NCBI GenBank assembly: GCA_035525455.1
Contig: DATLEF010000174.1
Span: forward strand, 7,254 to 71,253
Direction: 5' to 3'
Origin: Burkholderiales bacterium
GTDB taxonomy: Bacteria; Pseudomonadota; Gammaproteobacteria; Burkholderiales; SG8-41
DNA: 64,000 nucleotides
Shown: positions 22,302-39,595 of the stretch, piece by piece
Layout of the letters: the number at the start of each line of letters is the position of its first letter
Position numbering within the stretch: position 1 is the first letter of the stretch
The notes under the pieces: generated by a model
Told to the model about the DNA's origin: nothing
What the model saw: the letters and a program-made list of their open reading frames with translations, nothing else
Database searches by the model: none
Made by a program: the position numbers and the translations under genes

Positions 22302-22481
22302 TTACGCCGGAGCGACGCCCGAAATCACTTTGCCCGCGCCGTCGCAGTGCTGACACGGCTTGCCGTCATCCAGCATGCCGCTGCCGCTGCATTTCGGACA
22401 CGCGGTATCCGCGGTTCCAGCCATGCCGGGCGGCGTTTCGGCAGCCGGATTCATTTCAGGTTCGATGGGACTGGTCGACAT
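22302..22481 (-). CDS. 59-aa protein with a DnaJ-type CXXCXGXG zinc-finger pair
   Basis: ATG at 22481 preceded by AGGAG. MSTSPIEPEMNPAAETPPGMAGTADTACPKCSGSGMLDDGKPCQHCDGAGKVISGVAPA. Two CXXCXGXG motifs, enough for one Zn site. Confidence 0.55.
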   Translation of the reverse strand: MSTSPIEPEMNPAAETPPGMAGTADTACPKCSGSGMLDDGKPCQHCDGAGKVISGVAPA

Positions 22482-22591
22482 AAGCAGGCTCCTGGCTAGC
22501 GTCGGGCCTCTTGCGGCTTTTGTCACGTGCTGCGCCACAGGAGTGGTTCCTGTGGATGCAAGTTATGCTCCTGTCGCCGCTTCAGTCGTTC

Positions 22592-23770
22592 TTACGCGAC
22601 GCGAAAAAGCGCGCGCGGTGCTTTATGCAGCCGCTCGAAGCCGTGCGCGGTGATATGTACCAGTTCGCCAACCTGCACACCCGCGAGCTGATCGGTCGTA
22701 ATGACATTGGGCTGCACCACGATCGTCATGCCCGCGCGTAACGTCATCGCGGGCAGTGGACCCGCCGGCCTGCTCTTACTCCCCAGCACCGGCGGAAAAT
22801 AACCGCCGCCAAAACCGTGCACGAGATCGTCGCACGTCGTAAAACCGGCTTTCTCGATCACACCTGATACGTCCACGATCTGCTCCATCGTAGTGCCGGG
22901 TCTCAGCACTGCGGCAATCGCGTCGAAAGCTGCTTCGGCCGTCGCGTACAACTCCCGATAAAGCGGCGTCGGATCCGCTGCCACCGTGAACGTACGCAAT
23001 ATCTGGCCGGGATAGTCCCAGAAGCTGCCGCTGATCTCGGCGAACACAACGTCGCCGGCCGCGACCGTGCGATTCTCCGGAAACTGCCGCGGCACGCGGC
23101 AATCCGGATCGTTCATCGCCGTGACGCCGAAGTAATGAATGTAGGTGGAGCCGCCGTGCCGCGTGTACGCACGCTCGGTGATGTCCCACAGCTCGCGCTC
23201 CGTCGCGCCGGGGCGCAACTCTTCGCGCAACGCCTCGATAGCGGCGTCGCTGAATGCGGCGCCGATGCGCAGCCAGTCGATCTCTTCGTCCGACTTGATG
23301 AGCCGCAGCTCGACGTACTCGCGATTCATGTCGACGAACGTCGCGAAAGCGCTTTCGAGCATTTTGCATTTTCGATACGCGAGCGGCCCGAGGAAACCCA
23401 CACGCTGTGCGCCGCGGCGCTTCAACTCCGCGATCACCTTGTCGATGCCCCCATGCTCGCCCCACTTCACCTCGGTATTGCGCGCAATGCGGCGGGCGAG
23501 AGGAACGTGGTTGAACCACTCCATGTACATGAGGTTGTGCTCGCTCGGCGAAACGATCACGTACGCTTCGATCGTCGCCGGCCAGCCGGTGAGCCATACC
23601 ACGCCGGAGCCTGCGCGCTGCTCGCCGCATACCACCAGATGATCGACCTGATTCTTTTGCATTGCCTCGAGCAGCGCACCGCGCCGGCGATCGATCTCGC
23701 CCTCGGAAAAACGCGGGTAGGGTTGTTGCCCGACGATCGCCGCGAGGCGCGGCTCGAGGTGCAAAGGCAT
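22592..23770 (-). CDS. M24-family metallohydrolase (creatinase/Xaa-Pro-aminopeptidase fold)
   Basis: The track ORF (629 aa) has an Arg-rich spurious extension. It was trimmed to the ATG at 23770 (GGAAAGGA upstream), giving 392 aa. It has a creatinase-type N domain plus a pita-bread C domain (VFAEISGSFWDYPGQILRTF, VHGFGGG, IVVQPNV). Confidence 0.8.
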   Translation of the reverse strand: MPLHLEPRLAAIVGQQPYPRFSEGEIDRRRGALLEAMQKNQVDHLVVCGEQRAGSGVVWLTGWPATIEAYVIVSPSEHNLMYMEWFNHVPLARRIARNTEVKWGEHGGIDKVIAELKRRGAQRVGFLGPLAYRKCKMLESAFATFVDMNREYVELRLIKSDEEIDWLRIGAAFSDAAIEALREELRPGATERELWDITERAYTRHGGSTYIHYFGVTAMNDPDCRVPRQFPENRTVAAGDVVFAEISGSFWDYPGQILRTFTVAADPTPLYRELYATAEAAFDAIAAVLRPGTTMEQIVDVSGVIEKAGFTTCDDLVHGFGGGYFPPVLGSKSRPAGPLPAMTLRAGMTIVVQPNVITTDQLAGVQVGELVHITAHGFERLHKAPRALFRVA

Positions 23771-23826
23771 GTGATCCTTTCCTGACGGGCAGCGACGTGA
23801 GAGGCCGGCAAACGCCGCAGCGGCTC

Positions 23827-24942
23827 CTATCCTTGTGCCTCGTACCATGGGTACGCGCTGGTCGCGCTGACCGGCCCCGCAACGCGCGCAGGCCGCACCC
23901 AGGACGGATTCAGCTGCGCGATCGACGCGACGCCCATCAACCCGAGCGCGGTGCGGATTTCGATCTCGAGGAGCTCGAGCATGCGCTCGATGCCGGCCTG
24001 CCCGCCGGCCGCGAGCGACCAACCGAGCAGCTTGCCGACGCCGACTGCGCGCGCACCGAGCGCGAGCGCTTTGATGACGTCGGTTCCCCGCAACACGCCG
24101 CCGTCGAAAAGGATTTCGGCGCGCCCGGCCACGGCATCGACCACTGCAGGCAACACTTCGATACTGCCTTCTGCGTGATCGAGCTGACGGCCGCCGTGGT
24201 TGGACACGTAGACCGCGTCCGCGCCGTGCTCGACTGCGAGAGACGCGTCTTCGGCTGTGGCGATTCCTTTGACGATGAGCGGGCGCTGCATGCGCTCTTT
24301 CATCCAGACGAGATCGCTCCAGACGATGCTCGCCTGGTAACGCGGATCGCCGAAGCCTTCTCGCACATTGGCGCGGCCGATAAGATCGCGCTCGCGCCGC
24401 CCATACCACGCACGATCGGCGGTGACGCACAGCGCGCGATAACCCGCGGCGCGCGCGCGATCGAGGATCTCTTCGATCCACTCCCGGCCGGAGCGCACGT
24501 ACAGCTGGAATATGAGCGGCTCGCTCACAGCCGCCTGCGCGGCCTCTATGCTCGGTTTGGCGGCGGTACTGATGAATGCGGTCGTGCCTCGCGCGAGAGC
24601 CGCTCGTGCGACGGGTATCGCGCCTTCAGGATGCGCCATGCCGAGAAAGCCGCCGACCGGCGCGAGAAATACCGGACTTGCAAGTGTCTGACCGAGCAGT
24701 GTCGTCGTGATATCGATGTCGGCGACGTTCACAAGCACGCGCTGGCGCAATGCGAGTGAATCGAGCGCGAGGCGATTGCGCCGCAAAGTCGTCTCGGAAT
24801 CCGCACCACCGGAAAGATGGTCCCATAGGGCCTGCGGCAATTTCTGACGCGCCGTGTGTACGATCTCCTGCAGCGACACGAACTCTTCGCGCTGCTCACC
24901 CGGTACTGCTGCGCTTTTCGGCGATTGCGGCATCACTTTCAC
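23827..24942 (-). CDS. FMN-dependent alpha-hydroxy acid dehydrogenase/oxidase (LldD / glycolate-oxidase family)
   Basis: 371 aa. Motifs PVFLAPVGG, LIVKGI, VYVSNHGGRQLD and GVLRGTDVIKALALGA. Confidence 0.85.
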   Translation of the reverse strand: MKVMPQSPKSAAVPGEQREEFVSLQEIVHTARQKLPQALWDHLSGGADSETTLRRNRLALDSLALRQRVLVNVADIDITTTLLGQTLASPVFLAPVGGFLGMAHPEGAIPVARAALARGTTAFISTAAKPSIEAAQAAVSEPLIFQLYVRSGREWIEEILDRARAAGYRALCVTADRAWYGRRERDLIGRANVREGFGDPRYQASIVWSDLVWMKERMQRPLIVKGIATAEDASLAVEHGADAVYVSNHGGRQLDHAEGSIEVLPAVVDAVAGRAEILFDGGVLRGTDVIKALALGARAVGVGKLLGWSLAAGGQAGIERMLELLEIEIRTALGLMGVASIAQLNPSWVRPARVAGPVSATSAYPWYEAQG

Positions 24943-24946
24943 GAGC

Positions 24947-25948
24947 TCACTTTCGGGAAGTCGTTCTGCCGCTCATCGGCTTTTTCAAGCTCGCGAGGTC
25001 GGGCGCGGCCGGCAAATCCTTACGCCCGCGCGCGAGCTCGTAAAATCGCGAGGCAAGCGCGAGATCCTGCAGCGCGGTGCCGACTGATTTGAACACGACG
25101 AGCCCCGTATCGGGCAAATGTGCCGTGCCCGCGGCGACGTCCGCAAGTGTCACCTGGCGATCCGGCGTCAATGCGCCTTCCTTCACTGCCAGCTGCAGAT
25201 CACCTGCTTCTTCGGCGGCACGCAGCGTATCGACGACGACAACGCTCGCATTGGCGAATGCGCGAGTATCCACTTCGATCGATTCCGGACGCGTGCTGCC
25301 GACGGCGCAAAGCAGACGACAGGATTCGAGCCAGTCTGCGCTCAGTACCGGTTCGCTACTGCGCGAGCTGGTCGCCGCCACGACGATCGTCTGGCCGCGC
25401 GTGGCCGCCTGCGCACTGGGCTCGGCCCGCACCGGCAGGCCGAGCTTCGAGCCCATCTGGCGCGCGAACAGCTCGCGATTGGCGAGCGTCGGGCTATATA
25501 CGCGAGCGGATGCTACCGTATACACGCTCGCCAGCGCTTCGAGCTGCATGCGCGACTGGTGCCCCGCCCCGATCAAGCCAACGGTGACCGGGCCCTCGAC
25601 GCGGAGCTTGCGCGCAACGACGCCGCTCGCCGCACCCGTACGTAAATCGGTAATGAGCCGCCCGTCCAGCACTGCCAGGAGCTCTCCGTCGGCGAGCCGA
25701 TAGAGCGACACCACATAGCGCACGCCCTCACCCCGAATCATGTGAAACGCTTTGGTCGCGGCATAGCCGTTCGCATAGTCGGCGGCGAACATCATCCGCA
25801 TCCAGCCGCCTTCGAACATGGAGTTCAAGCGCGGGGAAATGAAGGTCTTGCCGGCGGCTTCGTGCTGAGACGTTTGTTCCAGCAGATCGACGGCCTCGCG
25901 CATGTCGAGCACGCTCTCGAGCGCTTCGGCCCCCAGGATTAACGCCAT
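24947..25948 (-). CDS. ornithine cyclodeaminase / mu-crystallin family protein
   Basis: 333 aa. NAD-binding GLIGAGHQSR. Family motifs (TDLRTGAAS, KSVGTALQD). Confidence 0.85.
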   Translation of the reverse strand: MALILGAEALESVLDMREAVDLLEQTSQHEAAGKTFISPRLNSMFEGGWMRMMFAADYANGYAATKAFHMIRGEGVRYVVSLYRLADGELLAVLDGRLITDLRTGAASGVVARKLRVEGPVTVGLIGAGHQSRMQLEALASVYTVASARVYSPTLANRELFARQMGSKLGLPVRAEPSAQAATRGQTIVVAATSSRSSEPVLSADWLESCRLLCAVGSTRPESIEVDTRAFANASVVVVDTLRAAEEAGDLQLAVKEGALTPDRQVTLADVAAGTAHLPDTGLVVFKSVGTALQDLALASRFYELARGRKDLPAAPDLASLKKPMSGRTTSRK

Positions 25949-26045
25949 AAAGGTCCACGTTGCTTCCTGCTTCGCAGGGCATTCAGAACGGTGCTTAGGC
26001 GGCTCGCGCCGCTATATGTACTCATGCCTGAGTCGCGCCGCGCAC

Positions 26046-26978
26046 TTACGAGCTCAAACCGTCGCCGACTTCGACGTTCTCGGGCTTGAGCTCGATTCCG
26101 GATGCCTTGGCCTGCAACAGGAGCAGCGTCGAAAAGTCTTCCTCGGTGTAACCGTGACCGATCAGCGTCTGCACGATGTCTCGTGTGAGCGAGGTGAGGG
26201 GCATCGGCACACCGTACGTTCTGCCTGCGCTCAAGCCGAGATCGATGTCCTTGCGCAGAAGCTCAGGCGTGAAAGTCACGTGAAAGTCGAGGTTCGTCAG
26301 CGCGGGCGCCTTGTAGCGCGTGAACGTCGAACCCATCACGCTCTTGTTCAGAAAATCGAGAAATGCATGGCGCTTCATGCCCGCCTTTTCCGCAAGCAGC
26401 GTGATTTCGCAGAGGTTCTGGATGACCACGCCCAGCATGACGTTGTGACAGATTTTTGCGATGCGCGAGAGCTCGCCGTCGCCGACGTACGAAACCCCCT
26501 GGCCAATCGCGGACAGATAAGGGGCAACCGCATCGAACGCGTCCTGCGGCCCCGAAGCGACGACCGTCAGCTTGCCCGCCTTGATCACTTTGGCGTTCCC
26601 CGAAACGGGTGCCGCGAGGAGCTTCACGTTCTGTTTCGCGAGCTTGTCGCGGATCTCCGCCGATTCCTCGAGCGAGATCGACGTGCTGTCGACGACGATC
26701 CGCGGCGCTCTGCCTTTGGACGTGACGCCATTCGGTCCGAACAGAACTTCCTTCACGTCTTTGCCAGTTGAAACCATTGTGAAGACGATGTCGCAGTCGG
26801 CGAGATCGGTCAGCGCGTTCACGACTTTCGCGCCGGATTTCGCGAGCGGCTCGGCTTTGGAGCGCGTGCGGTTCCAGACCGAGATGTCGCAGCCCGATTT
26901 GGCGAGACGCTCGGCCATCGCGTAACCCATGCGGCCGATGCCGATCCAGCCGAGCTTGTGCTGCTTCATGTTCGCCAT
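26046..26978 (-). CDS. NAD(P)-dependent beta-hydroxyacid dehydrogenase (3-hydroxyisobutyrate-dehydrogenase family)
   Basis: 310 aa. N-terminal GWIGIGRMGYAMA Rossmann motif, a 6PGDH-type NAD-binding domain, and the catalytic-Lys region LLRKDIDLG. Confidence 0.85.
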   Translation of the reverse strand: MANMKQHKLGWIGIGRMGYAMAERLAKSGCDISVWNRTRSKAEPLAKSGAKVVNALTDLADCDIVFTMVSTGKDVKEVLFGPNGVTSKGRAPRIVVDSTSISLEESAEIRDKLAKQNVKLLAAPVSGNAKVIKAGKLTVVASGPQDAFDAVAPYLSAIGQGVSYVGDGELSRIAKICHNVMLGVVIQNLCEITLLAEKAGMKRHAFLDFLNKSVMGSTFTRYKAPALTNLDFHVTFTPELLRKDIDLGLSAGRTYGVPMPLTSLTRDIVQTLIGHGYTEEDFSTLLLLQAKASGIELKPENVEVGDGLSS

Positions 26979-26993
26979 TGTTTTCCTTTCAGG

Positions 26994-27050
26994 AAAAAAG
27001 GGGGGACAAGATAGCCCCTCCCCCTACCCCTCCCCAACGCCGGGGAGGGG
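26994..27050 (-). terminator. hairpin pair / possible intrinsic terminator between E2 and the dehydrogenase gene
   Basis: On the minus strand there is a perfect 9-bp hairpin cccctcccc-N6-ggggagggg (27027-27050). It is followed by a G/C stem (27000-27024) and a T6 run (complement of A26994-26999). Confidence 0.4.
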
Positions 27051-27110
27051 AGTAACCGATCGATATGGTCAACGTATCGCTAAAGTACCTAGGCCCCTCT
27101 GCACTTGGGC

Positions 27111-28436
27111 TCACGCCGATAAGTCCTGCGCCCAATGCCGCGTCTCGATGATGAGCTTCAGCTCGCGCAGAAATGCCGCCGCGTACGCGCCGTCGACGGC
27201 GCGGTGGTCGAAGCTCTGCGCGAGCACTCCGACGGGCCGTATCGCGATGCTGTCGCCGTCGGGCGTTTCGATCACAATGGGTTTCTTGCGCACGGCGTCG
27301 GTCGACAGGATCGCGACCTGCGGCTGATTGATGATCGGCGCGGTGATCACGGTCCCGTACGCACCGTTGTTGGTGATCGTATAACTGCCTTCGGTGAGCT
27401 CGTCGGGTTTCAACTTACCCGCTCGGGCGCGTGCGGCAAGATCGGCGATCTCGCGCGCGATCTGCGGCAGCGATTTATTCGGCACGTCCTTCACGACCGG
27501 CACCATCAGACCCTCGAAGTTCAGATCGACGGCGATGCCGATATTGACGCGGCGCTGCAGTGTGACCACCTCGCCGCTGAAAAGCGCGTTGAGCCTCGGA
27601 TACCGCCCCAGGGCGATGGAAACAGCGCGCATGACGAATGGCAGATAGGTGAGGCTGTGCCCTTCGCGCTCTTTCCATTGAACCGCGACTTCTCCGCGCG
27701 CGTGCTCGACGCGATGGAAATCGGCTTCGACCACCTGCAGCACGTGCGGCACGCTGGTCCACGATTTCGGCATGTTTTCCGCAACGCGCTTGCGAACTGC
27801 GCTGAGCGGGAGCGCCTGCCCCAAAGGCGCGGACGCGGCTGGCCGGGCGGTCGCAGGCGCGGTCGGCTCGATGCGTTCGACAGACGTATCGGGTGCGCGG
27901 GATGTCGATGGCGCTGTGCCAGGGCGCTTCGTCTCCGAGCTCGAAATGTGCGCGGTCACGTCTTCGCGCGTGATCCGGCCGTCGCGACCCGTGCCACGTA
28001 TGCGCTCCGGCTCGAGCCCGTGTTCCGCGATGAGCTTGCGCACGACGGGCGAGAGCTGCGCCTGCCCGCCCGCCTTCGGCACACTGGGCGGTTTGGCGAT
28101 TTCGGCAGCGTGCTCCGCAGTCGGACTGATGCGCTGCGCGCCAGTGCCATCGATCGTCACTGAGGATGAGAGCGGTCCACTCCCGGGCACCGCCGCGGCG
28201 CTCCCGCTTTCGCGTATGACGGCAAGCTTCGCGCCGACCTTGGCGGTGACGCCTTCCTGAACCAGGATCTCAGCGACGATGCCATTCGCCTGCGCGGGTA
28301 TCTCGGTGCTGACTTTGTCGGTTTCGACGTCGAACAGGACTTCGTCGGCTTTCACGCTATCGCCGACTTTCTTGTACCACTTGGTGACGACACCCTCGGC
28401 GACCGTTTCGCCGAGCTGCGGCATGATTACATCCAT
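27111..28436 (-). CDS. 2-oxoacid dehydrogenase E2 component (dihydrolipoamide acyltransferase)
   Basis: 441 aa. Lipoyl domain with DVETDKV, an E3/E1-binding domain (SPVVRKLIAEHGLE), and a catalytic domain with DHRAVDG. Confidence 0.9.
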   Translation of the reverse strand: MDVIMPQLGETVAEGVVTKWYKKVGDSVKADEVLFDVETDKVSTEIPAQANGIVAEILVQEGVTAKVGAKLAVIRESGSAAAVPGSGPLSSSVTIDGTGAQRISPTAEHAAEIAKPPSVPKAGGQAQLSPVVRKLIAEHGLEPERIRGTGRDGRITREDVTAHISSSETKRPGTAPSTSRAPDTSVERIEPTAPATARPAASAPLGQALPLSAVRKRVAENMPKSWTSVPHVLQVVEADFHRVEHARGEVAVQWKEREGHSLTYLPFVMRAVSIALGRYPRLNALFSGEVVTLQRRVNIGIAVDLNFEGLMVPVVKDVPNKSLPQIAREIADLAARARAGKLKPDELTEGSYTITNNGAYGTVITAPIINQPQVAILSTDAVRKKPIVIETPDGDSIAIRPVGVLAQSFDHRAVDGAYAAAFLRELKLIIETRHWAQDLSA

Positions 28437-31115: not shown

Positions 31116-32131
31116 GCGGCACCTCCATCGGCCCAGACATCCTTTTCGATGACATCGAGCGAAGGCAGTGGCGACGCTTTTGCGGTCGCGGTGGCCTCCT
31201 CGACCCGCTTCATGGCCTCGGCTTCCATGTCTTTCAGCGTGGCGTCCGCAAAGCCGAGCTCGAGCAGCCGGTTGCGGTACCGGTCTATAGGATCGCGCTG
31301 GAGCCACTTGTCGAGCTCGCCTTCCGGACGGTATTGGCCCGGATCGGCACGCGAGTGGCCGCTGTGGCGATACGTCATCGCTTCGATCAACGCCGGTCCA
31401 CCGCCTTTGCGTGCGCGGTCCATGTACTTCACCGCGGTTTTGTAGACTTCGTCGGCGTCGTTGCCGTCGATCACGATTTTTTCGAGCCCGTAAGCCGAAG
31501 CACGATCGGCTGCGGGATGCTCGACCGCCGTCACGTGGCTGATCGGCGTGTATTCCATGTACAGGTTGTTCTCGCACACGAAGATGACCGGCAGCTTCCA
31601 GACCGCTGACATGTTCAGCGCTTCGTGGAAAGCGCCGATGTTGGTCGTGCCATCGCCGAAGAAGCACACCGCGACCTGCTCGGTGCCGCGGTATTGCGCA
31701 CTCCAAGCAGCCCCTGCCGCGACCGGCAGATGCGCACCGATGATCGCGTACGAACCCATCGCGCCTTTGGAGACGTCGGTCAGGTGCATCGACCCGCCTT
31801 TACCGCCGAGCAGTCCGCACTCGCGCCCCATGAGCTCGCCGAGCACACCCGCCATCGAAGCGCCGCGTGCGAGCGTGTGGGCGTGACCACGGTAGGTGCA
31901 GAACGTCCAGTCGTCGGGCCGCATCGCGACGCCGAACGCGGCCGCGATCGCCTCCTGCCCGAGCGAGAGATGGCTCGTGCCCTTGACGAGGTTCTGAAGG
32001 AACAAGTCGTAGGCGCGCTTCTCGCAGTAGCGCAGCTCGAGCTGCAGCCGGTAGAGCTCCATGCGCGTTTCGCGTCCGATGTCGATCTCTGCCGGTGTAG
32101 CGGATTTCTTACGTTTTACCGATGTGTCCAC
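31103..32131 (-). CDS. TPP-dependent 2-oxoacid dehydrogenase E1 component alpha subunit (AcoA/PdhA-like)
   Basis: 342 aa. TPP-binding motif GDGTTNIGAFHEALNMSAVWKLPVIFVCENN. YRGHAH and GGKGGSMH. Confidence 0.9.
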   Translation of the reverse strand: MDTSVKRKKSATPAEIDIGRETRMELYRLQLELRYCEKRAYDLFLQNLVKGTSHLSLGQEAIAAAFGVAMRPDDWTFCTYRGHAHTLARGASMAGVLGELMGRECGLLGGKGGSMHLTDVSKGAMGSYAIIGAHLPVAAGAAWSAQYRGTEQVAVCFFGDGTTNIGAFHEALNMSAVWKLPVIFVCENNLYMEYTPISHVTAVEHPAADRASAYGLEKIVIDGNDADEVYKTAVKYMDRARKGGGPALIEAMTYRHSGHSRADPGQYRPEGELDKWLQRDPIDRYRNRLLELGFADATLKDMEAEAMKRVEEATATAKASPLPSLDVIEKDVWADGGAAWRN

Positions 32132-32284: not shown

Positions 32285-33643
32285 TTAATACTTATTAGCG
32301 ATGGGCAGCTGCTGCGCCGGGAAAAGCGTAATCACCTTAGCGCCGTCGGGCGTCAGGACCACTTCTTCCTCGATGCGCGCTGCGGATACACCGTCGGTCG
32401 CAGGACAGAATGTCTCGACCGCGAAGACCATCCCCGCTTTGAGCTCGTACGGGTCCTTGAGCGAATTCAGGCGCGAGATGAGCGGCCGCTCGTGCAGGCC
32501 GAGCCCGAGGCCGTGACAGAAGTTGAGGCCGAAAGCGGACATCTCCGTTTCGAAACCGATCTCCGTGCTCTTCGGGAACGCCTTCGCCACCTTGTCCGTA
32601 GAAACGCCGGGCTTCAGCATCGCGATCGCCCCGTCCATCCATCCCCGCGCTTTCTTGTACGCATCGTGCTGGGCCTTCGTAGCGGAGCCCACGGTGAACG
32701 TGCGGTAATAGCACGTGCGATAGCCCATATACGACTGGATGATGTCGAAATACGCCTGGTCTCCCGGACGGATCATGCGGTCGGTGAAGTTATGCGGGTG
32801 CGGGCTGCAGCGCTCACCGGCGATCGCATTGATCGCTTCCACGCAGTCCGAGCCCATCTCGTAGAGACGCTTGGTCGCCATTGCGACGATCTCGTTTTCG
32901 CGCACGCCCGGCTTGAGCGCTTCGAATATGTCCTGGTAGACGCCGTCGCCCATCGCTGCCGCCATATTGAGCAGCGTGATCTCGTCGTGGCTTTTGATCT
33001 CGCGCGCGTCGAGCATCACCTGCTGGCCGTCCCGCACTTCGATCCCGAGCTTCTGCAGCGCGAATAGAAAAGGCGGCTCGACGACGTCGATACCGAGCGG
33101 CATGTCGGCCACGCCTTCCTGCTGAAGCACGTCTTTGACTTCCTGCGCCATCTGCTCGAAGAGCCCCACGCGCGGCGACACGGCGCCGCGCAATCCGGTG
33201 AGTCCGGCAAGGCAATGGTTCTTCGGAAGCCAGGGCGCATAGATCTTGTGGTGCCGCGCGGCCGAACCGAAATCCCACACCCACGGCTCGCCGTTGCCGG
33301 TCAGCAGACACCAGCGCGTCAACTTGTCACGCGCCCATTCGCCTATGACCGTGCTAGAGATGTAGCGGATGTTGTACTGATCGAACGTGAGGAGCGCCCC
33401 GAGCTCCGAATTCGCCAGCGCATTGCGCGTGCGTGCGAGCCGGTATTCGTGCAGCCGCCGGAAATCGACGCGCTCTTCGAAAGCGACCTGCATGCGGCCG
33501 GGCGCCTGCAGCGGCCGCTCCCAGCGGTGGCCGGGATCGGCCGGATCGAACAGCACGTCGGGCGCTTCGGGAACGCGGCGCTTGCGATCGACATCGGTGG
33601 CCGCAATCCGCTTCGGCTCGCTTTTTCTACTCTTCGTCGCCAT
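32285..33643 (-). CDS. M24-family metallohydrolase, long creatinase/DddP-like subgroup
   Basis: 452 aa. N-domain FRRLHEYRLARTRNAL...LLTFDQYNIRYISST. Pita-bread domain with putative metal ligands (YFDIIQSYMGYRTCYYRTF, CHGLGLGLHE, FAVETF, IEEEVVLT). Confidence 0.8.
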   Translation of the reverse strand: MATKSRKSEPKRIAATDVDRKRRVPEAPDVLFDPADPGHRWERPLQAPGRMQVAFEERVDFRRLHEYRLARTRNALANSELGALLTFDQYNIRYISSTVIGEWARDKLTRWCLLTGNGEPWVWDFGSAARHHKIYAPWLPKNHCLAGLTGLRGAVSPRVGLFEQMAQEVKDVLQQEGVADMPLGIDVVEPPFLFALQKLGIEVRDGQQVMLDAREIKSHDEITLLNMAAAMGDGVYQDIFEALKPGVRENEIVAMATKRLYEMGSDCVEAINAIAGERCSPHPHNFTDRMIRPGDQAYFDIIQSYMGYRTCYYRTFTVGSATKAQHDAYKKARGWMDGAIAMLKPGVSTDKVAKAFPKSTEIGFETEMSAFGLNFCHGLGLGLHERPLISRLNSLKDPYELKAGMVFAVETFCPATDGVSAARIEEEVVLTPDGAKVITLFPAQQLPIANKY

Positions 33644-33654
33644 GGCGAATCTCT

Positions 33655-34743
33655 CTAGGTGCGTGAAGCGGCGAGCTGTGTCGCCATCCAGTCAGCGGTC
33701 TGATCGCGATAGCGGTACCAGAGGTTGTTGACGACGTGGTTACCGCCTTCGATGACCGAGAGCACGCAGGGGCCGGACACTTCGGCAGCGAGCTTGCGCG
33801 CTTCGTCGGGCGAAGTCAGGCGATCCTTCGTGCCGGCCACGATGTAGATCGGACACGTGATGTTCTTCGCGTGGCCGCGCAGCGTCATGCGCGCTGCCGT
33901 GCGGCTCGCTTCCTCGAGATTCGCGCTGTGCGAGCGCACGCGGAATGCTTCGACGTTGAGTATGGGGCGGCCTTCGAAAGTCGGCTTGCGCTCGTATGCG
34001 CCGGAAAGCGCGACGCACGCTTTGATGCGCTTGTCGAAAGCCGCAGCGCGCGGCGCGTAGTAGCCGCCGAGGGAAACACCCCACACGCCGACCCGCGAGA
34101 CGTCGACGTCCGTGCGCTTTTCGAGAAAATCGATCACGGCACCTACCGGTTTCTCGTACTCGGGGCAGATGGGCAAGTCGTATTCGGCCTCCCCCTGACC
34201 CGGTCCGTCGAAAGCCAATGTGGCTACTCCGCGTTTGAGAAAGCGGCTTTCGTAGTCCTCCATCTCTTCTTTCGCCGAGTCGAGGCCCATGCACATGACG
34301 ACGACAGGAGGCCGGTCGCTGCCCGCGGGTTTGCGCAGATTGCCGTACAGCGTCGTGCCTTCGTACGGAATCGCCACTCGCTCGCCTGGCGGACGCAAGA
34401 GCGGCAATGCCCGGTTGCGGCATTCGACCGCATTCATGTGCGCTTGTTTGAGCTGCGCCATATCGTTCACGAACAAAAACTTGCCGAAGTGATAGCAGAC
34501 CGCCGCGCGCGTCCAGTGCTCGCCGGCCGAAAGCTTGAATCCTTCAGCATGCGCTTTGTTGCCGAGCTCTTCATGAACGGCGGCACGAGCGCTCCACGCG
34601 CTGCACCAGTCTTCCCAACGCTCGATGGCACCGGTCACTTCCTGAAAATCAGTCAGAGGCACGCCGTTCACCACGAAACGCGGCGCCCAGTGCGAAATCG
34701 CGGACTGAACGCGCTCGTCTTTGTTACGTTGTGGCGTATCCAT
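33655..34743 (-). CDS. alpha/beta hydrolase, 2,6-dihydropseudooxynicotine-hydrolase-like (C-C hydrolase family), copy 1
   Basis: Start moved to the ATG at 34743 (GAAAGG upstream), which matches the paralog's N-terminus. Nucleophile elbow GVSLGGY. Motifs HWAPRFVVNGVP and MCMGLDSAKEE. Confidence 0.8.
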   Translation of the reverse strand: MDTPQRNKDERVQSAISHWAPRFVVNGVPLTDFQEVTGAIERWEDWCSAWSARAAVHEELGNKAHAEGFKLSAGEHWTRAAVCYHFGKFLFVNDMAQLKQAHMNAVECRNRALPLLRPPGERVAIPYEGTTLYGNLRKPAGSDRPPVVVMCMGLDSAKEEMEDYESRFLKRGVATLAFDGPGQGEAEYDLPICPEYEKPVGAVIDFLEKRTDVDVSRVGVWGVSLGGYYAPRAAAFDKRIKACVALSGAYERKPTFEGRPILNVEAFRVRSHSANLEEASRTAARMTLRGHAKNITCPIYIVAGTKDRLTSPDEARKLAAEVSGPCVLSVIEGGNHVVNNLWYRYRDQTADWMATQLAASRT

Positions 34744-34782
34744 TCGTGTACCTTTCTCAAACACCATGCTGAATCGAGAGAC

Positions 34783-35754
34783 TCATTGCGCCGTGATCCC
34801 CGCCGCCTTTATGACTGGCGTCCACTTCGCCAGCTCGGCCTTGATGAAGGCGCGCATCTCTTCGGGTGTCGTAGGCGCAGCGATCGCTCCGAGCTTGAGT
34901 AGCGCCTCCTTCACGTCGGGCCGGTTGAAGCTGTCGTTGATTTCCTTGTTGAGCCTCGTGATGATGATCTGCGGCGTTTTCGCGGGCGCCATGATTCCAA
35001 ACCAGAGGAGCGCATCGAGTCCGGGAACGCCGGCTTCGGTCGCGCTCGGAATATCGGGCGTACCTGGAAAGCGTTGCAGGCTCGTGACTGTGAGCGCTTT
35101 TACCTTCTTCGCCTGAAGCTGCACGTGAGCCGTCACGGGAGAAAGGAACGCGAACTGCGTTTCGCCACTCAGCAGGCCCGTCAGCGCCGGCCCGGCGCCC
35201 TTGTACGGCACGTGCAGAAACTTGACGCCGCTCACGTTCATGAAAAGCTCGCCGGCGAGATGGCTGATCGTGCCGGCGCCCGCAGAACCCCACGGCACCG
35301 CATTGCCGCCTTTGGCCTTGCCGAGTGCGATCAGCTCCTGCACGGAATTCACGGGCACCGACGGATGCGTCACCAGCACGGTGACCCCTTTCATGAGCAG
35401 CGAGATCGGCGCGAAATCCCGTACCGGGTCGTAAGGCAGGTTCTTGAAGAGCGACACGGCCGAGACGTGTGTGCCCGCATGCGCGATCGTCAGCGTATAC
35501 CCATCGGGGACCGATTTCGCGACGATATCGGTGCCGATCGTGCCACCCGCACCGGCGCGGTTATCGACGATGAACTGCTGCCCGAGTCGCTCGGTCAGTT
35601 TTTGCGCGGTGAAGCGGGCGATCTGGTCGGATGTGCTTCCTGCCGACCCGGTGATCACGCGCACGGGGCGGGTTGGGTACTTGTCGGCGTCGGCTGCCAG
35701 GGCACTTGCCGCGGCCAACATGGTTCCGAGTACGGCCGCGATTTTCAATATCAT
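34783..35754 (-). CDS. Bug/TctC-family tripartite tricarboxylate transporter substrate-binding protein
   Basis: 323 aa. Signal peptide. Family motifs (DNRAGAGGTIG, PDGYTL, LPYDPVRDFAPIS, VPYKGAGPAL). Confidence 0.85.
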   Translation of the reverse strand: MILKIAAVLGTMLAAASALAADADKYPTRPVRVITGSAGSTSDQIARFTAQKLTERLGQQFIVDNRAGAGGTIGTDIVAKSVPDGYTLTIAHAGTHVSAVSLFKNLPYDPVRDFAPISLLMKGVTVLVTHPSVPVNSVQELIALGKAKGGNAVPWGSAGAGTISHLAGELFMNVSGVKFLHVPYKGAGPALTGLLSGETQFAFLSPVTAHVQLQAKKVKALTVTSLQRFPGTPDIPSATEAGVPGLDALLWFGIMAPAKTPQIIITRLNKEINDSFNRPDVKEALLKLGAIAAPTTPEEMRAFIKAELAKWTPVIKAAGITAQ

Positions 35755-35807
35755 TTGTCCTCCTCGTTATGTCAGCTCTTTGGGCGCGCTCGACTGGCGC
35801 GCTTGCG

Positions 35808-36769
35808 TCACTCCGCTTTCGCGCCGGACTCCTTCACGACCTTGCCGAGCTTGACCACTTCTGACCGTATGTATCTGTCGTATTCCTCCGGCGTCATCGG
35901 CATCGGATCCGCACCCTGGTTCTGGAGCTGCCCTGCGACGTCCGGCAGGCGCAGGATCTTGACCACCGCGCCATTCAGCTTGTCGATGATCGGCTTGGGC
36001 GTACCGGCGACCGTGATCAGACCGAACCAGCCGTCGAATACGCAGTCGCGCACTCCCGCTTCGACCATGGTCGGCAGTTGCGGAAACGCCGACGAGCGTT
36101 TGCTGCTGCTCACCGCCAGGGCACGCACTCTACCGGCTTTAATGTGAGAGGACGCGAGTATCGCCGGCGCGAAGGTCATCTCGAGCCGGCCCGCGACGAT
36201 CTCCGTGATCGCCTCGGCGAATCCCTTGAACGGCACGTGCACGATACTGATTCCTGCAGTGCTGCGGAAGATCTCACCGTTGATGTGTGAATTGGAGCCG
36301 ATGCCCGCAGACGTATAGTTGAATGTCCCCGGTTTGGATTTGGCCAGAGCCACCAGCTCCTTCACGTTTTTTGCCGGCAGCGACGGGTGCACGATCAGGA
36401 TATTCGGTATCAGCGCGAGCGGCGTGATCCCCGCGAAATCCTCACCGGATCGAACGGCAGCTTGGTGTACAGCGTTGCGTTGATCGCGTGACTGGCCGAT
36501 ACGACGAGCAGCGTATATCCGTCTGGCGGGGCTTTCGCTACGACCGAGGTGCCGACGACACTGCCGGCGCCCGGCCGATTTTCAACGAGGACCTGCTGCC
36601 CCCACATTTCGGTGAGCTTCGGGCCGATCACGCGTGCGAGCGCGTCGGTTGCGCTTCCCGCGCCGAAAGGCACGACGATGCGGATGGGCTTCACCGGATA
36701 TTCCTGCGCATGCACCGCACCGGCCATGACGAGCGCGAGCGCCATAAGTTGGATTGCGAGACGAGTCAT
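35808..36769 (-). pseudogene. Bug/TctC-family substrate-binding protein, disrupted by a -1 frameshift near 36440
   Basis: Two consecutive ORFs (36410-36769 and 35808-36392) together make one Bug protein. Frame 1 reads ...LPFDPVR then ISRGSRRSR*. Shifting by one base after gtgagg restores ...DPVRDFAGITPLALIPNILIVHPSLPAKNV..., matching the family motif DPVRDFAP seen in the neighbour. This is consistent with one missing G. Confidence 0.7.
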
Positions 36770-36781
36770 GCTTGATCCTCC

Positions 36782-37861
36782 TCAAGATTCCAGACACCGC
36801 CCCATCCAGTCGGCGGATTGCGTGCGGTAGCGGTAGGCGCGGTTGTTCGCGACGTGGTTGCCGTCCTCGATCACCAGCAGCTCGACGGGGCCGCGCGCTT
36901 CGCGTGCGAGTTTTTCGGCGTCCTGCCACGGCACGATCCGGTCGAGCTTGCCCGCGACGATGTAGAGCGGGCACGTGATGTTCGAGGCGACGCCCTTCAG
37001 CGTCAAGCTCGCGCCGTATTCGCGCGCGTCTTCCAGCGTCGCGGACTTCGAGCGCACGCGAAAAGCTTCCTGCGTGAGCGGGTTCATCCCGGGCCAGATT
37101 TCGGCCCAGTCGTAAGGGCCCGAGAGCGCGATGCACGCACGAACGCGTTTTTCAAAAGCCGCGGCGCGCGGCGCGTAATAGCCGCCCAGCGATACGCCCC
37201 ACAGACCGGTGCGTGACGCGTCGAGATCCGCGCGCCTGTCCACCCAGTCGAGAACGCTTTTCACGGCCACTTCGTAGTCACCGCGAAGGGGAAGCTCGTA
37301 TTCGGCTTCGCCCTGGCCCGGACCGTCGAAGGCTAGAGTGGCCATGCCGCGCGCAAGAAAAATCGATTCGTAGGCATCCATCTCTTCTTTTGCCGAATCG
37401 AGCCCCATGCACATCACCACGATTGGCGGACGCTCCACGCCGCGGGGCTTACGCAGGATTCCGTAGAGGCGCGTGCCGGCGTGCGGTATTTCCACCCGCT
37501 CGCCCGGCGGGTCGAGATGGGGCAAAGCAGCGCGGCGGCAATCGACTGCTTTCATGTGCGCCCCGCGCATCTGCGCATAATCGTGCACAAATACGAACTT
37601 GGCAAAGTGATAGCACACGGCTGCCCGCGTGTAGTGTTCGCCCCCCGAAAACCCGTTGCCTGCTGCGAGCGCGTCGGCGCCGAGCGCTTCGTGAACGGCT
37701 GCGCGCCGCGACCACGCTGCACACCAGTCGTCCCAGCGCTCGATTGCAGCAGTCACTTCCTGAAAATCGGTGAGGGGTACGCCGTTCGCGACAAAACGCG
37801 GCGCCCAATGAGCAATCGCGGCGTGGACGCGCGCATCGACGTTTTTCGCCGCCGGTTCCAT
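36782..37861 (-). CDS. alpha/beta hydrolase, 2,6-dihydropseudooxynicotine-hydrolase-like (C-C hydrolase family), copy 2
   Basis: 359 aa. Collinear with and roughly two-thirds identical (by eye) to copy 1. GVSLGGY nucleophile elbow. GAAGG RBS. Confidence 0.8.
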   Translation of the reverse strand: MEPAAKNVDARVHAAIAHWAPRFVANGVPLTDFQEVTAAIERWDDWCAAWSRRAAVHEALGADALAAGNGFSGGEHYTRAAVCYHFAKFVFVHDYAQMRGAHMKAVDCRRAALPHLDPPGERVEIPHAGTRLYGILRKPRGVERPPIVVMCMGLDSAKEEMDAYESIFLARGMATLAFDGPGQGEAEYELPLRGDYEVAVKSVLDWVDRRADLDASRTGLWGVSLGGYYAPRAAAFEKRVRACIALSGPYDWAEIWPGMNPLTQEAFRVRSKSATLEDAREYGASLTLKGVASNITCPLYIVAGKLDRIVPWQDAEKLAREARGPVELLVIEDGNHVANNRAYRYRTQSADWMGRCLES

Positions 37862-37871
37862 TCGAGTACCT

Positions 37872-38768
37872 TCAAGCCGCCTGCGCGGGCAGTGCTCGCT
37901 GCATGTAGCTCAAGTCCATGTACTTCTCGGGTGCGCCTTTGGCCTGCGTATAGCCTTCCGCTTGCCACACGGTATCGATGACTTCGCGCAGCCCCGTTGC
38001 GCTGATCACGGGACGGCGACGTTGCGCAAAGCTTTTCAAACCCGCAAGCGCGGCGGTGGGTGCGAGCTTGAGGCGGGCCGGCAGCGCCTGTAGCGCCTCG
38101 TCGGCGTGCGCCGGATCCGAGAGCCATTCGTACGCGCTATCGTACGCGCGTATGAAGGCGAGCAGATCCTGCTCGTGATCGCGCGCCCAGCTGCGCCGTG
38201 CAGCCATGACGGGGCCGGGATACGTAGGAAAGCGCTCGCTCATGCGCGCGAGCATCGTGTAGCCGTCGGCGAGAAGCTGCGCATCGAAAGGTGCATTGAG
38301 CAGGCTGGCAACCGCGGCGCCGCTTTTCAGCGCGTCATAGCGCTCGACGGACCCGCCGAACTCCTTGAAAACGATTTCGCTTTCGGCGAGTTTTTCCTGC
38401 AACAAGCGCCGCAGAAGCAGCGCGTAACCCGTGCGTGCGCCGTCCACCGCTATAGTGCGCCCGCGTAGATCGCCGATCGCGCGTATGTGCGCGGCTGCGA
38501 CCAGCGTCAGTTCCGGCGCGTGGCCGTGAGGCATGAAGACGAAAAGGTCGGCGCCGCGTTCGACTGCGCGCACGACATGATCCGATTGCTGAAAGCCGAT
38601 ATCGAAACCGCCGCGGATCAATTCTTCCTGCTGCTCGACCGAGGAGCCTGTGAGAGTCACCTCAACTTCGGTGCCCTCGCGCTCGAATAACCTCAGCGCC
38701 TGGGCGACATACAGGGGCCAGGTATTGGTGCCCTCTGAAATGAGCCCGAGCTTGACCAGGCGTGACAT
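37872..38768 (-). CDS. NMT1/THI5-like (ABC-type periplasmic-binding-fold) protein without a signal peptide
   Basis: Trimmed to the ATG at 38768, preceded by GGAGGAG, giving 298 aa. It starts directly with MSRLVKLGLISEGTNTWPLYVA and has no hydrophobic leader in either candidate N-terminus. Confidence 0.7.
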   Translation of the reverse strand: MSRLVKLGLISEGTNTWPLYVAQALRLFEREGTEVEVTLTGSSVEQQEELIRGGFDIGFQQSDHVVRAVERGADLFVFMPHGHAPELTLVAAAHIRAIGDLRGRTIAVDGARTGYALLLRRLLQEKLAESEIVFKEFGGSVERYDALKSGAAVASLLNAPFDAQLLADGYTMLARMSERFPTYPGPVMAARRSWARDHEQDLLAFIRAYDSAYEWLSDPAHADEALQALPARLKLAPTAALAGLKSFAQRRRPVISATGLREVIDTVWQAEGYTQAKGAPEKYMDLSYMQRALPAQAA

Positions 38769-38839
38769 GCTCCTCCGGGAGTTTTGCGGAAAGGATTGCG
38801 GATGCGGACGCGGTTTTGAGCAGGATGCTAGGGACGCAT

Positions 38840-38882
38840 GAACCAATTGTCAACGATTTGAACCAATTGACCGAATTGGTTC
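38840..38882. promoter_or_regulatory. candidate operator: three GAACCAATTG half-sites in the divergent promoter region
   Basis: gaaccaattg at 38840-38849 and 38860-38869, and an inverted copy gaattggttc at 38873-38882. The last two form aaccaatt-N5-aattggtt. Lies between the cluster's first gene (start 38768) and the GntR gene (start 38921). Confidence 0.45.
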
Positions 38883-38920
38883 GCCCGCTCACAATACTTC
38901 TCAAACAGGAGTCGAGGCTC

Positions 38921-39595
38921 GTGAATCGTGAAGCATCGCTCGCCGGCGCGAGACGCATACGCGATTACATTTTGAATGCGGCGCGGGAGCATCACGCGCC
39001 GGGCTCGCAACTTCCCACCGAGCGCGAGCTTGCGCGGCGCTTCAGCATGCCGCGCAATGCCGTGCGCAGGACGCTTGCGCAGCTCGAAGCAGAAGGCTCC
39101 ATTACGCGTCACGTGGGCCGAGGTACCTTTCTCGCCGGACGTATGGCGGTGGGCGCACCGGCTGCCGACGTCGCCGATGCGAGCCCGGCCGAGCTCATCG
39201 AAGCACGGCTGCGTATCGAGCCTGCGCTCGCCGAGCTCATCGTGACGAATGCGACCGCTGCCGATTTTCAGCGCATGGAAAGCTGCCTCGACAAAGCCGA
39301 GCGTGCGACGACGCTGGACGAGTTCGAAATGTGGGATGCGGCGCTCCATCAGGCGCTGGCAACGGCGACGCACAACCGCTTCGTCATTCGGGTCCTCGAT
39401 ATGGTGGCCGCCGTGCGCGAACAGGCTGAGTGGGGCAAGCTCAAGGACCGCATCGTCACGCCCGAGCGGCGCCTCAAGTATCAGGAGGAGCATCGCGCCA
39501 TTGTGCGGGCACTCAAAGAACGTGACGCCGAACGCGCGCGGGAGCGCCTGCTTGCACACTTGCAGCACGCCCGCCGCAATCTCTTCGAATACTAG
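38921..39595 (+). CDS. GntR-family transcriptional regulator, FadR subfamily (FCD domain)
   Basis: GTG at 38921, 9 nt after AGGAG, gives 224 aa, typical for the family (the track ORF starts at 38762). wHTH LPTERELARRFSMPRNAVRRTLAQLEAEGSI. All-helical C-terminal FCD-like domain. Confidence 0.8.
   Translation: MNREASLAGARRIRDYILNAAREHHAPGSQLPTERELARRFSMPRNAVRRTLAQLEAEGSITRHVGRGTFLAGRMAVGAPAADVADASPAELIEARLRIEPALAELIVTNATAADFQRMESCLDKAERATTLDEFEMWDAALHQALATATHNRFVIRVLDMVAAVREQAEWGKLKDRIVTPERRLKYQEEHRAIVRALKERDAERARERLLAHLQHARRNLFEY

Follow-up and report, generated by a model that had tools for sequence, protein, structure and literature searches.

Which substrate is served by a row of fifteen consecutive genes whose products, taken together, match no assigned pathway? 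The question is raised by a gene cluster in a 64,000-nt stretch of DNA from an uncultured Burkholderiales bacterium of soil or freshwater (GTDB SG8-41; assembly GCA_035525455.1, contig DATLEF010000174.1, positions 7,254-71,253 of the forward strand), which we refer to, at its full length, as the window. The row lies on the minus strand at 22302-38768 (~16.5 kb) and faces a divergent gene for a GntR/FCD (FadR subfamily) regulator. We found that it is built from an invariant core of five genes, encoding a long M24-family enzyme (M24L), the E1alpha and E1beta subunits of a thiamine-diphosphate dehydrogenase, a lipoyl-bearing E2 acyltransferase and a HIBADH-like dehydrogenase, in a variable, always co-oriented shell. 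The cluster is real, conserved and without match to an assigned pathway: the core genes and their catalytic motifs are intact, the core recurs across phyla, M24L bears a Cys signature and a conserved palindrome lies in front of the row. With a probability that we put at about one half, we propose that the cluster is a single regulon under GntR/FCD control that imports and hydrolyses an N-containing carboxylate, yielding a semialdehyde and a 2-oxoacid or acyloin that would be turned into acyl-CoA.

The gene row and its conservation

All fifteen minus-strand genes carry, by Pfam, the families that a first-pass annotation of this DNA had given them, and the divergent regulator is present as well. 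G+C is ~63% throughout the window, and fifteen same-strand genes in succession have a chance of ~6e-5 under random orientation, although the stronger evidence that the row is no product of chance is its conservation in other genomes. Intergenic distances within the row run from -13 (the E1alpha/E1beta overlap) to 153 bp. Gene starts were reset by ribosome-binding sites (RBS) and the length of relatives; the raw open reading frame (ORF) extents overshoot M24b, Amidohydro_3, E1beta, NMT1 and GntR, and the NMT1-like start at 38768 is backed by a database protein of identical sequence (P0121). The features are as follows.

22302..22481, minus strand: CxxC protein of 59 aa with two CxxCxGxG Zn-finger motifs (CPKCSGSG...CQHCDGAG; weak Pfam DnaJ_CXXCXGXG), the row's last gene; its ORF extends to 22538
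22592..23770, minus strand: M24b, creatinase/prolidase-type M24 protein of 392 aa (Pfam Creatinase_N and Peptidase_M24)
23827..24933, minus strand: FMN-dependent alpha-hydroxyacid dehydrogenase/oxidase (Pfam FMN_dh, 360 bits; NCBIfam LldD-like matches under cut-off)
24947..25948, minus strand: OCD, ornithine cyclodeaminase/mu-crystallin family, imine/amine oxidoreductase type (Pfam OCD_Mu_crystall)
26046..26978, minus strand: HIBADH-like beta-hydroxyacid dehydrogenase/semialdehyde reductase, core (Pfam NAD_binding_2 and NAD_binding_11)
27111..28436, minus strand: E2 dihydrolipoyl acyltransferase with lipoyl, E3-binding and catalytic domains, core (Pfam)
28444..30111, minus strand: Amidohydro_3 metal-dependent hydrolase, probably periplasmic (Pfam Amidohydro_3, 285 bits)
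30138..31115, minus strand: E1beta, thiamine-diphosphate dehydrogenase subunit, core (Pfam Transket_pyr and Transketolase_C); 13-nt overlap with the E1alpha stop
31103..32131, minus strand: E1alpha, pyruvate dehydrogenase (PDH)/acetoin type rather than branched-chain type, core (Pfam E1_dh)
32285..33643, minus strand: M24L, M24 'pita-bread' enzyme of 452 aa, Cys-substituted subfamily, anchor of the core (Pfam Peptidase_M24)
33655..34743, minus strand: Hyd2, FrsA-like alpha/beta hydrolase of the DHPON-hydrolase/AntI/Ayg1 clade (Pfam FrsA-like)
34783..35754, minus strand: TctC/Bug periplasmic solute-binding protein, intact, with signal peptide (Pfam TctC, 211 bits)
35808..36769, minus strand: second TctC/Bug gene, split into ORFs of 119 and 194 aa (Pfam TctC on both pieces)
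36782..37861, minus strand: Hyd1, paralog of Hyd2 (Pfam FrsA-like)
37872..38768, minus strand: NMT1/THI5-like protein of the class II binding-protein fold, the row's first gene (Pfam NMT1 / NMT1_2)
38769..38920, no strand: divergent control region of 152 bp with palindrome, half-site and promoter-like sites
38921..39595, plus strand: GntR/FCD (FadR subfamily) regulator, 224 aa from the GTG at 38921 (Pfam GntR and FCD; start and RBS)

Database homologs of M24L number more than 8000; the top 120, from metagenomes of soil, groundwater and lakes, share 86-94% identity with it. An exact-sequence look-up of M24L returned no contig. When one genome per GTDB species was scanned, M24L relatives turned up in 299 genomes, and neighbourhoods were counted on the best 80 of these 299 loci, all from metagenome-assembled genomes (MAGs) of uncultured Betaproteobacteria/Burkholderiales of soil, groundwater and lakes in which M24L is 84-94% identical. 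Presence was counted only where the contig reached far enough, and the neighbourhoods were clustered with a filter on G+C at third codon positions (GC3) against the long antisense ORFs of GC-rich DNA. The counts for M24b, the FMN dehydrogenase, OCD and the Zn-finger protein are lower bounds, with the flank ending at 10 kb. The presence of each gene and its median identity are:

E1alpha: 68/68 loci with enough flank, 84%
E1beta: 62/62, 90%
E2: 47/47, 62%
HIBADH-like: 46/47, 86%
At least one TctC: 43/48, 56%
NMT1-like: 35/48, 57%
C-C hydrolases: 29/48, 63-72%
Divergent GntR within 6 kb: 27/48, 72%
Amidohydro_3: 23/47, 67%
M24b: at least 19/45, 58%
FMN dehydrogenase: at least 9/45, 72%
OCD: at least 3/45, 62%
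Zn-finger: at least 1/45 (after M24b in the relative L006), 55%

The minimal gene order in these relatives is a divergent GntR followed by NMT1, TctC, M24L, E1alpha, E1beta, E2, HIBADH, TctC, aldo-keto reductase and M24b, and expanded forms resembling that of the window are also seen. Besides the aldo-keto reductase, the genes that recur in relatives and are missing from the window cluster encode a two-domain rhodanese, a CN_hydrolase, an LVIVD propeller exported by the twin-arginine route, RidA, TauD, OsmC and a NitT/TauT ABC set. Thus, the genes do not split into several separately conserved, already assigned operons. The earlier description of one fifteen-gene unit holds for M24L, E1alpha, E1beta, E2 and HIBADH, which are invariant, whereas OCD, the FMN dehydrogenase, the Zn-finger protein, Amidohydro_3 and the hydrolases proved facultative. 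Near-identical betaproteobacterial clusters are also carried by MAG records labelled Streptomyces, Chitinophaga pinensis or Bordetella parapertussis (L009, L037, L043, L029, L024 and others), which are probably mis-binned or mis-named assemblies.

The Cys-type M24 enzyme and its partners across phyla

The best NCBIfam match of M24L is the DddP model NF043017, at 118 bits against a cut-off of 600, and DddP structures score ~75 bits. Its ligand positions read D300, C311, H377, E410 and E425, which departs from the D, D, H, E, E of canonical M24 enzymes (prolidase/aminopeptidase P): by alignment with DddP and among orthologs, the second metal-binding Asp is replaced with a strictly conserved Cys (...GYRTCYYRTF...), while the other four ligands and the prolidase-type HGLGLxxHE motif are retained. 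An exhaustive HMMER search over 1.84 billion cluster representatives returned 550 clusters at E <= 1e-30. Among the 36 full-length representatives within the best 150 of these 550, about 27 show D-C-H-x-E-E, down to 32% identity, and one shows the canonical D-D; the remainder look truncated or chimeric. The D, C, H, E, E pattern of M24L is conserved from bacteria to haloarchaea. Judged by these alignments, M24L belongs to an undescribed M24 subfamily with Cys in place of the second metal Asp, and a literature search found no paper on this subfamily or on the unit that M24 forms with E1 and E2.

DddP (4s01, 4rzy, 4b28) is the best relative of M24L over its whole length, the long N-terminal domain included, but M24L has Cys at the DISRT-motif Asp, is missing the extra Asp of the DddP FDTD motif, carries His at the position mutated in 4s01 (D377N) and sits in an entirely different genomic context. 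As DddP is a dimethylsulfoniopropionate lyase and the closest relative in both NCBIfam and PDB, the row could be thought to encode an organosulfur pathway in which M24L, as a lyase or hydrolase akin to DddP, would have a sulfonium or sulfonate carboxylate for its substrate, the HIBADH-like enzyme and a dehydrogenase of the succinate-semialdehyde dehydrogenase (SSADH) type would act on a sulfo- or carboxy-aldehyde, as in sulfolactaldehyde metabolism, and a rhodanese would deal with the released sulfur. The two-domain rhodanese found between E2 and HIBADH in 13 relatives is in keeping with this, as are the TauD-family dioxygenases within some clusters and adjoining that of the window (21119-22024), the NitT/TauT-type ABC sets in some relatives, the NMT1/SsuA-like first gene of the row, and the luciferase-like monooxygenase (LLM) family oxidoreductase and flavin reductase in Streptomyces and Natrialba. 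We nevertheless regard an organosulfur role as improbable, because M24L falls so far below the DddP cut-off and has the second Asp and the D377N-position residue of DddP replaced, because no sulfite exporter/dehydrogenase, Xsc, SuyAB or desulfonating enzyme was found among the window ORFs, and because the rhodanese, in-cluster TauD and NitT/TauT ABC genes are minority shell genes in relatives, with none inside the window cluster.

Scoring of the cluster genes bears out the first-pass view that the cluster matches no assigned pathway, as NCBIfam equivalog matches are all far under their cut-offs; E1beta alone passes a model, that of the generic PDH E1beta subfamily NF006667 (371 versus 321 bits). 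E1alpha scores 197 bits with human PDH E1alpha compared to 115-155 bits with the branched-chain enzyme (BCKDH), and the PDH equivalog models give 322 bits for E1alpha and 332 bits for E2 against cut-offs of 394 and 722. The motifs of E1alpha (thiamine-diphosphate-binding GDG...NN), E2 (TDKV with the lipoyl-Lys, and DHRAVDG) and the HIBADH-like enzyme (AKICHN with the catalytic Lys) are intact. In the PDB, the HIBADH-like protein is best matched by gamma-hydroxybutyrate (GHB) dehydrogenase (3pef), the 2-hydroxymethylglutarate dehydrogenase Hgd (3cky) and the tartronate-semialdehyde reductase TSAR (1vpd).

These scores raise the possibility that E1 and E2 form a second housekeeping pyruvate or branched-chain 2-oxoacid dehydrogenase whose neighbours are unrelated, a notion favoured by the E1beta model match, by the nearness of E1alpha to human PDH E1alpha and by the very strong conservation of the core genes. 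It is very improbable in the light of the adjacency of M24L and E1, which is kept in all 68 betaproteobacterial loci as well as in Alphaproteobacteria, Streptomyces and haloarchaea, of the E1alpha score below the equivalog cut-off, of the location of the genes on accessory plasmids in roseobacters, and of the dedicated GntR/FCD regulator of the operon.

In its workings, the core comes closest to an operon for an acetoin/2-oxoacid dehydrogenase. Like the acetoin (Aco) system, the row encodes a heterotetramer-type E1alpha/E1beta together with a lipoyl E2, all with intact motifs, and companion NAD(P) dehydrogenases; an aldehyde dehydrogenase and acetoin-reductase-like short-chain dehydrogenases/reductases (SDRs) accompany it in distant relatives. 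It differs from Aco in the M24 gene that always precedes E1alpha, in an E2 with a canonical 2-oxoacid_dh domain (the NF011457 match, 82 bits versus 307, covers the lipoyl domain only), in having GntR/FCD instead of an AcoR/sigma-54 regulator or AcoX, and in the presence of TctC proteins and several amide hydrolases. The window holds no E3 (lipoamide dehydrogenase), TctA or TctB, as annotated at first pass: tblastn with Phaeobacter LpdA gave no match in the window, and no ORF scanned there had a Pfam match to Pyr_redox, TctA or TctB. E1/E2 without E3 had been called typical of acetoin complexes, which is partly true, as acetoin operons do not always include E3, but the aco operons of B. subtilis, Pelobacter and Klebsiella do carry an E3 gene. 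The rhodanese (active-site CRMSHR) found between the E2 and HIBADH genes in the 13 relatives mentioned above (L004-L083) likewise occurs without an E3 gene; a rhodanese can use dihydrolipoate as acceptor, and a link to lipoyl-E2 is conceivable.

Outside Betaproteobacteria, carriers of the core unit were located by tblastn against plasmids and by neighbourhood look-ups. Six alphaproteobacterial loci (Phaeobacter, SC52, Pacificitalea, Roseibium, Salinarimonas and Acuticoccus, with Roseobacter and Stappiaceae included) encode an M24L ~60% identical to that of the window, followed by E1alpha, E1beta, a lipoyl protein, an SSADH-type aldehyde dehydrogenase, the E2 catalytic domain and sometimes LpdA, with a HIBADH-like gene no more than 8 kb away. 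In 6/6 of these loci the aldehyde dehydrogenase gene separates the lipoyl carrier from the E2 catalytic gene, and acetoin-reductase-like SDRs flank M24L. E2 is split there (L084, L089, L090 and L092-L094) into a lipoyl carrier of 340-440 aa with up to 2 lipoyl domains and a catalytic gene of 300 aa. Roseibium has, in addition, a 2Fe-2S/molybdenum-cofactor (MoCo) oxidoreductase pair (Fer2/MoCoBD directly after the E2 catalytic gene) and an amidase, and Acuticoccus an FrsA-like hydrolase nearby. In the roseobacters the unit genes reside on accessory plasmids, and the Phaeobacter gallaeciensis genome paper lists its plasmid genes merely as pyruvate dehydrogenase E1/E2.

The order in Streptomyces sp. 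YIM 121038 is HIBADH-like (50% identical), M24L, SSADH, VOC, a fused E1alpha-beta, E2, flavin reductase and LLM oxidoreductase. Haloferax mediterranei and Natrialba magadii carry M24L (36% identical) near E1beta/E1alpha and a TPP-binding protein; the Haloferax locus also has an SSADH, that of Natrialba an LLM oxidoreductase. The core supplies an orphan dehydrogenase complex of the 2-oxoacid/acetoin type with a partner in the genome, and such complexes are an open issue in Haloferax: for the orphan E1alpha/beta complexes of Haloferax volcanii the substrate is still missing (PMC8305020).

Regulation and a proposed pathway

A divergent FadR-type regulator over the row had been annotated earlier, and its gene encodes both the GntR helix-turn-helix and the FCD domain. 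The shared promoter region contains a perfect palindrome, ACCAATTGACCGAATTGGT, at 38862-38880, with one more half-site, AACCAATTG, at 38841-38849. Within the 64 kb of the window, ACCAAT-N7-ATTGGT is unique, and 30/31 relatives in which GntR and the operon diverge have it at the same intergenic position. A promoter scan placed its best promoter-like sites on both strands, with -35 boxes overlapping the palindrome repeats. This arrangement supports control by the FCD regulator of itself and of the row through the palindrome as a putative operator. The regulator shows weak NCBIfam similarity to UxuR, LldR and PdhR, sensors of hydroxy acids and sugar acids.

How might the encoded proteins act together? 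The TctC proteins would capture a carboxylate with an amide, amidine or lactam-type C-N bond, and entry would be via a tripartite tricarboxylate transporter (TTT) whose membrane parts are encoded elsewhere; where Amidohydro_3 is present, it may first trim a precursor in the periplasm. In the cytoplasm, Hyd1/Hyd2 (on a beta-dicarbonyl), the creatinase-type M24b and the Cys-type M24L would take the molecule apart, and the OCD-like, FMN-dependent and HIBADH-family dehydrogenases would adjust the oxidation state. The HIBADH-like enzyme and, in other phyla, also the SSADH-type aldehyde dehydrogenase would handle one fragment, a (carboxy)aldehyde/hydroxyacid pair, and the other fragment would be a small 2-oxoacid or acyloin that the PDH/acetoin-type E1 and lipoyl-E2 would convert to acyl-CoA with a housekeeping E3. 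The regulator would bind ACCAAT-N7-ATTGGT, overlapping both divergent promoters, until presumably released by the pathway carboxylate. Four elements of this proposal are inferred: the class of the substrate, the sequence of steps, the kind of reaction run by E1 and the expression of the row as one transcript. There is a hint that the E1 reaction is of the acyloin, acetoin-dehydrogenase-like type, given that the aldehyde dehydrogenase is embedded in the E1/E2 unit of the six alphaproteobacterial loci and that acetoin-reductase-like SDRs flank M24L.

Hyd1 and Hyd2 are 65% identical to one another (blastp), retain the Ser nucleophile elbow GVSLGG (GxSxG) and have DHPON hydrolase (2jbw; E 1e-46, residues 22-368) as nearest PDB entry, followed by AntI and Ayg1, so that their first description as C-C-hydrolase-like paralogs stands. 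They align with 2jbw over their full length in an FrsA-like fold with the Ser elbow, and two-subunit MoCo/2Fe-2S oxidoreductases flank the cluster, recalling the nicotine pathway, where a MoCo hydroxylase precedes DHPON hydrolase; yet the hydrolases are only moderately similar to 2jbw and count among the facultative genes (29/48), the MoCo genes lie outside the operon, and there is no further nicotine gene.

The two TctC proteins, with TctA and TctB not found among the window ORFs, are orphan Bug-type binding proteins. The break in the second TctC gene is a lone missing A near 36440, read directly from the sequence (GTGAAGGAT to GTGAGGAT), and since the gene is otherwise undamaged, the frameshift is a very recent lesion or else a sequencing error. 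The close relative L001/L011 (contig_15695; 5883-7405, 20746-21359) has several genes (TctC, FMN_dh and a hydrolase) in split or truncated form, which looks like long-read indel error; the TctC frameshift in the window may thus be an artefact too.

Amidohydro_3 has a hydrophobic, signal-like N-terminus (MLHSFHRLALILFFAVLAAPTVAAD), and a PDB sequence search returned no close solved structure for it. The NMT1-like protein has no signal peptide and is predicted to be cytoplasmic. A PDB sequence search gave nothing specific for it, and its AlphaFold2 (AF2) model (pLDDT 92.6) matched in Foldseek only the generic NitT/TauT binding-protein fold (ThiY, TauA, SsuA, Thi5, PqqT and the CmpC regulatory domain). 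In L033, L035, L039 and L013, the opposite end of the cluster additionally encodes a full ABC importer of the NitT/TauT type, including an NMT1 binding protein that does bear a signal. The best PDB matches of OCD are archaeal alanine dehydrogenase and pyrroline-2-carboxylate (Pyr2C) reductase. The ligand columns of M24b read E, Q, H, Q, E; as most metal ligands are missing and a Creatinase_N domain is present, M24b resembles the type represented by creatinase, a metal-independent M24 enzyme.

The involvement of nitrogen is suggested by the two M24 proteins, Amidohydro_3 and OCD, by the recurrence of genes for CN_hydrolase, amidase, RidA and MoCo hydroxylases, and by flavin reductase and LLM genes that in Actinobacteria and Natrialba are arranged in a way that recalls ring opening of the Rut/Tgn/hom type. 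The trigonelline (tgn) and pyrimidine (Rut) pathways open N-heterocycles and use a hydrolase and a semialdehyde dehydrogenase; M24L accompanied by flavin reductase and/or LLM oxidoreductase in Streptomyces, Paenarthrobacter and Natrialba is reminiscent of them. With the homarine system homABCDER, in which homA (for an FAD protein) and homB are adjacent and accompanied by homC and homD, the cluster shares the logic of a peptidase/amidohydrolase that is combined with an aldehyde dehydrogenase or a semialdehyde reductase and has a regulator of its own. The hom operon is without E1/E2 and requires an FAD protein (PMC13236597), whereas the window cluster has no FAD-binding, LLM or oxygenase gene and no aldehyde dehydrogenase.

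The first-pass annotation also pointed to a resemblance of the OCD and M24 genes to ectoine catabolism. On this account the row would be a divergent ectoine/hydroxyectoine (Eut/Doe) cluster, with the M24 proteins as ectoine hydrolases, OCD as EutC and a neighbouring pyridoxal-phosphate (PLP) enzyme as EutB, and an M24 hydrolase, an OCD-family enzyme and a PLP dehydratase of the PALP family (41941-42921) do co-occur within 20 kb, with weak matches to DoeA, EutC and EutB models. The resemblance did not withstand the equivalog scores and rests on OCD, one of the least conserved genes. Both M24 proteins reach 43-58 bits with the DoeA models TIGR02993 and NF038259 (cut-offs 613 and 575), OCD reaches 115 of 472 bits with EutC, and the PALP protein, at 230-251 versus 413 bits with the EutB models TIGR02991 and NF005680, instead passes the threo-3-hydroxy-L-aspartate ammonia-lyase model (505 versus 452 bits). 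Pfam and NCBIfam scans found no DoeB/EutE deacetylase, DoeD transaminase, EnuR or Ueh/Ehu transporter in the window, and among relatives OCD is kept in at least 3/45 and PALP in 6/48. An ectoine cluster is hardly credible on these grounds. The features tested do not support membership in the Aco, PDH, Eut/Doe, nicotine, DddP or hom systems, and a reading as beta-hydroxyaspartate cycle was rejected or down-weighted on model scores and conservation.

Several observations weigh against our proposal. The change from Asp to Cys in M24L could mean a different chemistry, and the nearest characterised relative of M24L, DddP, is a lyase and not a hydrolase. Paenarthrobacter and Rhodococcus carry M24L without E1/E2. 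The Roseobacter unit lies beside a ribose-type (RbsB-like) sugar ABC transporter, ThuA and SDRs, a context that points to a nitrogen-free polyol or sugar-acid substrate, and LacI regulators accompany the unit in Streptomyces, Roseibium and Acuticoccus; such sugar-type transporters and LacI regulators in other phyla keep a nitrogen-free hydroxy-acid substrate alive. Promoter and terminator scans performed overall no better than chance, and the gaps of 97-153 bp, together with a weak hairpin with T-run between E2 and HIBADH (27003-27018), allow for more than one transcript.

A rival reading is that of a mosaic, in which an ancient core would serve a nitrogen-free hydroxy acid, sugar acid or polyol, similar to acetoin/2,3-butanediol, with a dehydrogenase making an acyloin that E1/E2 splits into acyl-CoA and aldehyde, with M24L as lyase, dehydratase or isomerase, and with unrelated hydrolase and binding-protein genes that came under the same promoter by later insertion. 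The coming and going of shell genes agrees with such a history, as do the RbsB-like transporter, ThuA and acetoin-reductase-like SDRs of Roseobacter, the LacI regulators in three genera, the similarity of the window regulator to UxuR, LldR and PdhR, the aldehyde dehydrogenase embedded in the E1/E2 unit, and the example of DddP, which shows the M24 fold to be capable of elimination on a carboxylate. We judge the mosaic unlikely, since several lineages have, within the unit or next to it, two M24 proteins as well as genes for CN_hydrolase, amidase, RidA, OCD and Amidohydro_3, since the shell genes are inserted into the operon without exception in its own orientation and downstream of one conserved putative operator, which argues for functional linkage, and since M24L retains the prolidase-type HGLGLxxHE.

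An N-containing cyclic or amidated carboxylate that gives a 2-oxoacid or diketone, as proposed at first pass, is retained as the most plausible reading, with indirect backing from gene contexts in other organisms; the interpretation given then is reasonable, yet centred on shell genes. What merits follow-up is the unit formed across domains by Cys-type M24, E1/E2 and hydroxyacid dehydrogenase. More tentatively, the M24L-E1-E2-HIBADH unit, joined by an aldehyde dehydrogenase outside Betaproteobacteria, may be an ancient bacterial-archaeal pathway for a ubiquitous small metabolite without assigned catabolic genes, in which the Cys-type M24 would perform a new C-N (or C-S) cleavage ahead of an acetoin-dehydrogenase-like cleavage of an oxo compound. 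The 84-94% identity across species and the recurrence in marine Alphaproteobacteria, Streptomyces and haloarchaea suggest a common, strongly selected substrate that annotation has missed.

Pantothenate is one concrete, speculative candidate: its classical pathway needs an amide hydrolase, an alcohol dehydrogenase, an aldehyde dehydrogenase and a 2-oxoacid dehydrogenase, and the pantothenase protein was still unidentified in 2023 (PMC10393543). The idea is weakened by E1alpha being PDH-like rather than BCKDH-like. The question is directly testable in cultured carriers, which are partly genetically tractable and include Phaeobacter gallaeciensis DSM 26640 (plasmid pGal_E78), Tritonibacter mobilis, Pacificitalea manganoxidans, Roseibium marinum, Salinarimonas rosea, Streptomyces sp. 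YIM 121038 and Haloferax mediterranei.

Surroundings of the row

The following features lie outside the row.

13087-14963, plus strand, 15855-17186, minus strand, and 17206-18213, minus strand: aconitase-like large/small subunits, amino-acid permease and D-Ala-D-Ala-ligase-like ATP-grasp gene
18259-21020 and 43314-45895, both minus strand: two pairs of 2Fe-2S small and MoCo-binding large subunit (IorAB / aldehyde-oxidase type)
21119-22024, plus strand: TauD/TfdA-family dioxygenase, convergent to the row end
39862-41883, minus strand: membrane protein of 673 aa that passes the NCBIfam model 'fused MFS/spermidine synthase' (51 versus 40 bits)
41941-42921, minus strand: PLP enzyme, two genes upstream of the row and adjoining the 673-aa membrane protein
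54892-64000, minus strand: large hydrophobic ORFs resembling NADH dehydrogenase (nuo) subunits, by N-terminal sequence only

Some of these genes keep their place in relatives. The ATP-grasp and small-subunit-like genes are syntenic downstream of M24b in many of them, and L004, L005 and L050 have TauD-family genes within the cluster itself, where these separate rhodanese from HIBADH. The 673-aa membrane protein is found upstream of GntR in 16/48 and the PLP enzyme in 6/48, and in several relatives a gene homologous to the MoCo genes that flank the cluster precedes PALP, the membrane protein and GntR. A megablast of the whole cluster against plasmids gave only a 120-bp chance match, and the nuo-like ORFs would indicate a chromosomal rather than a plasmid location of the window.

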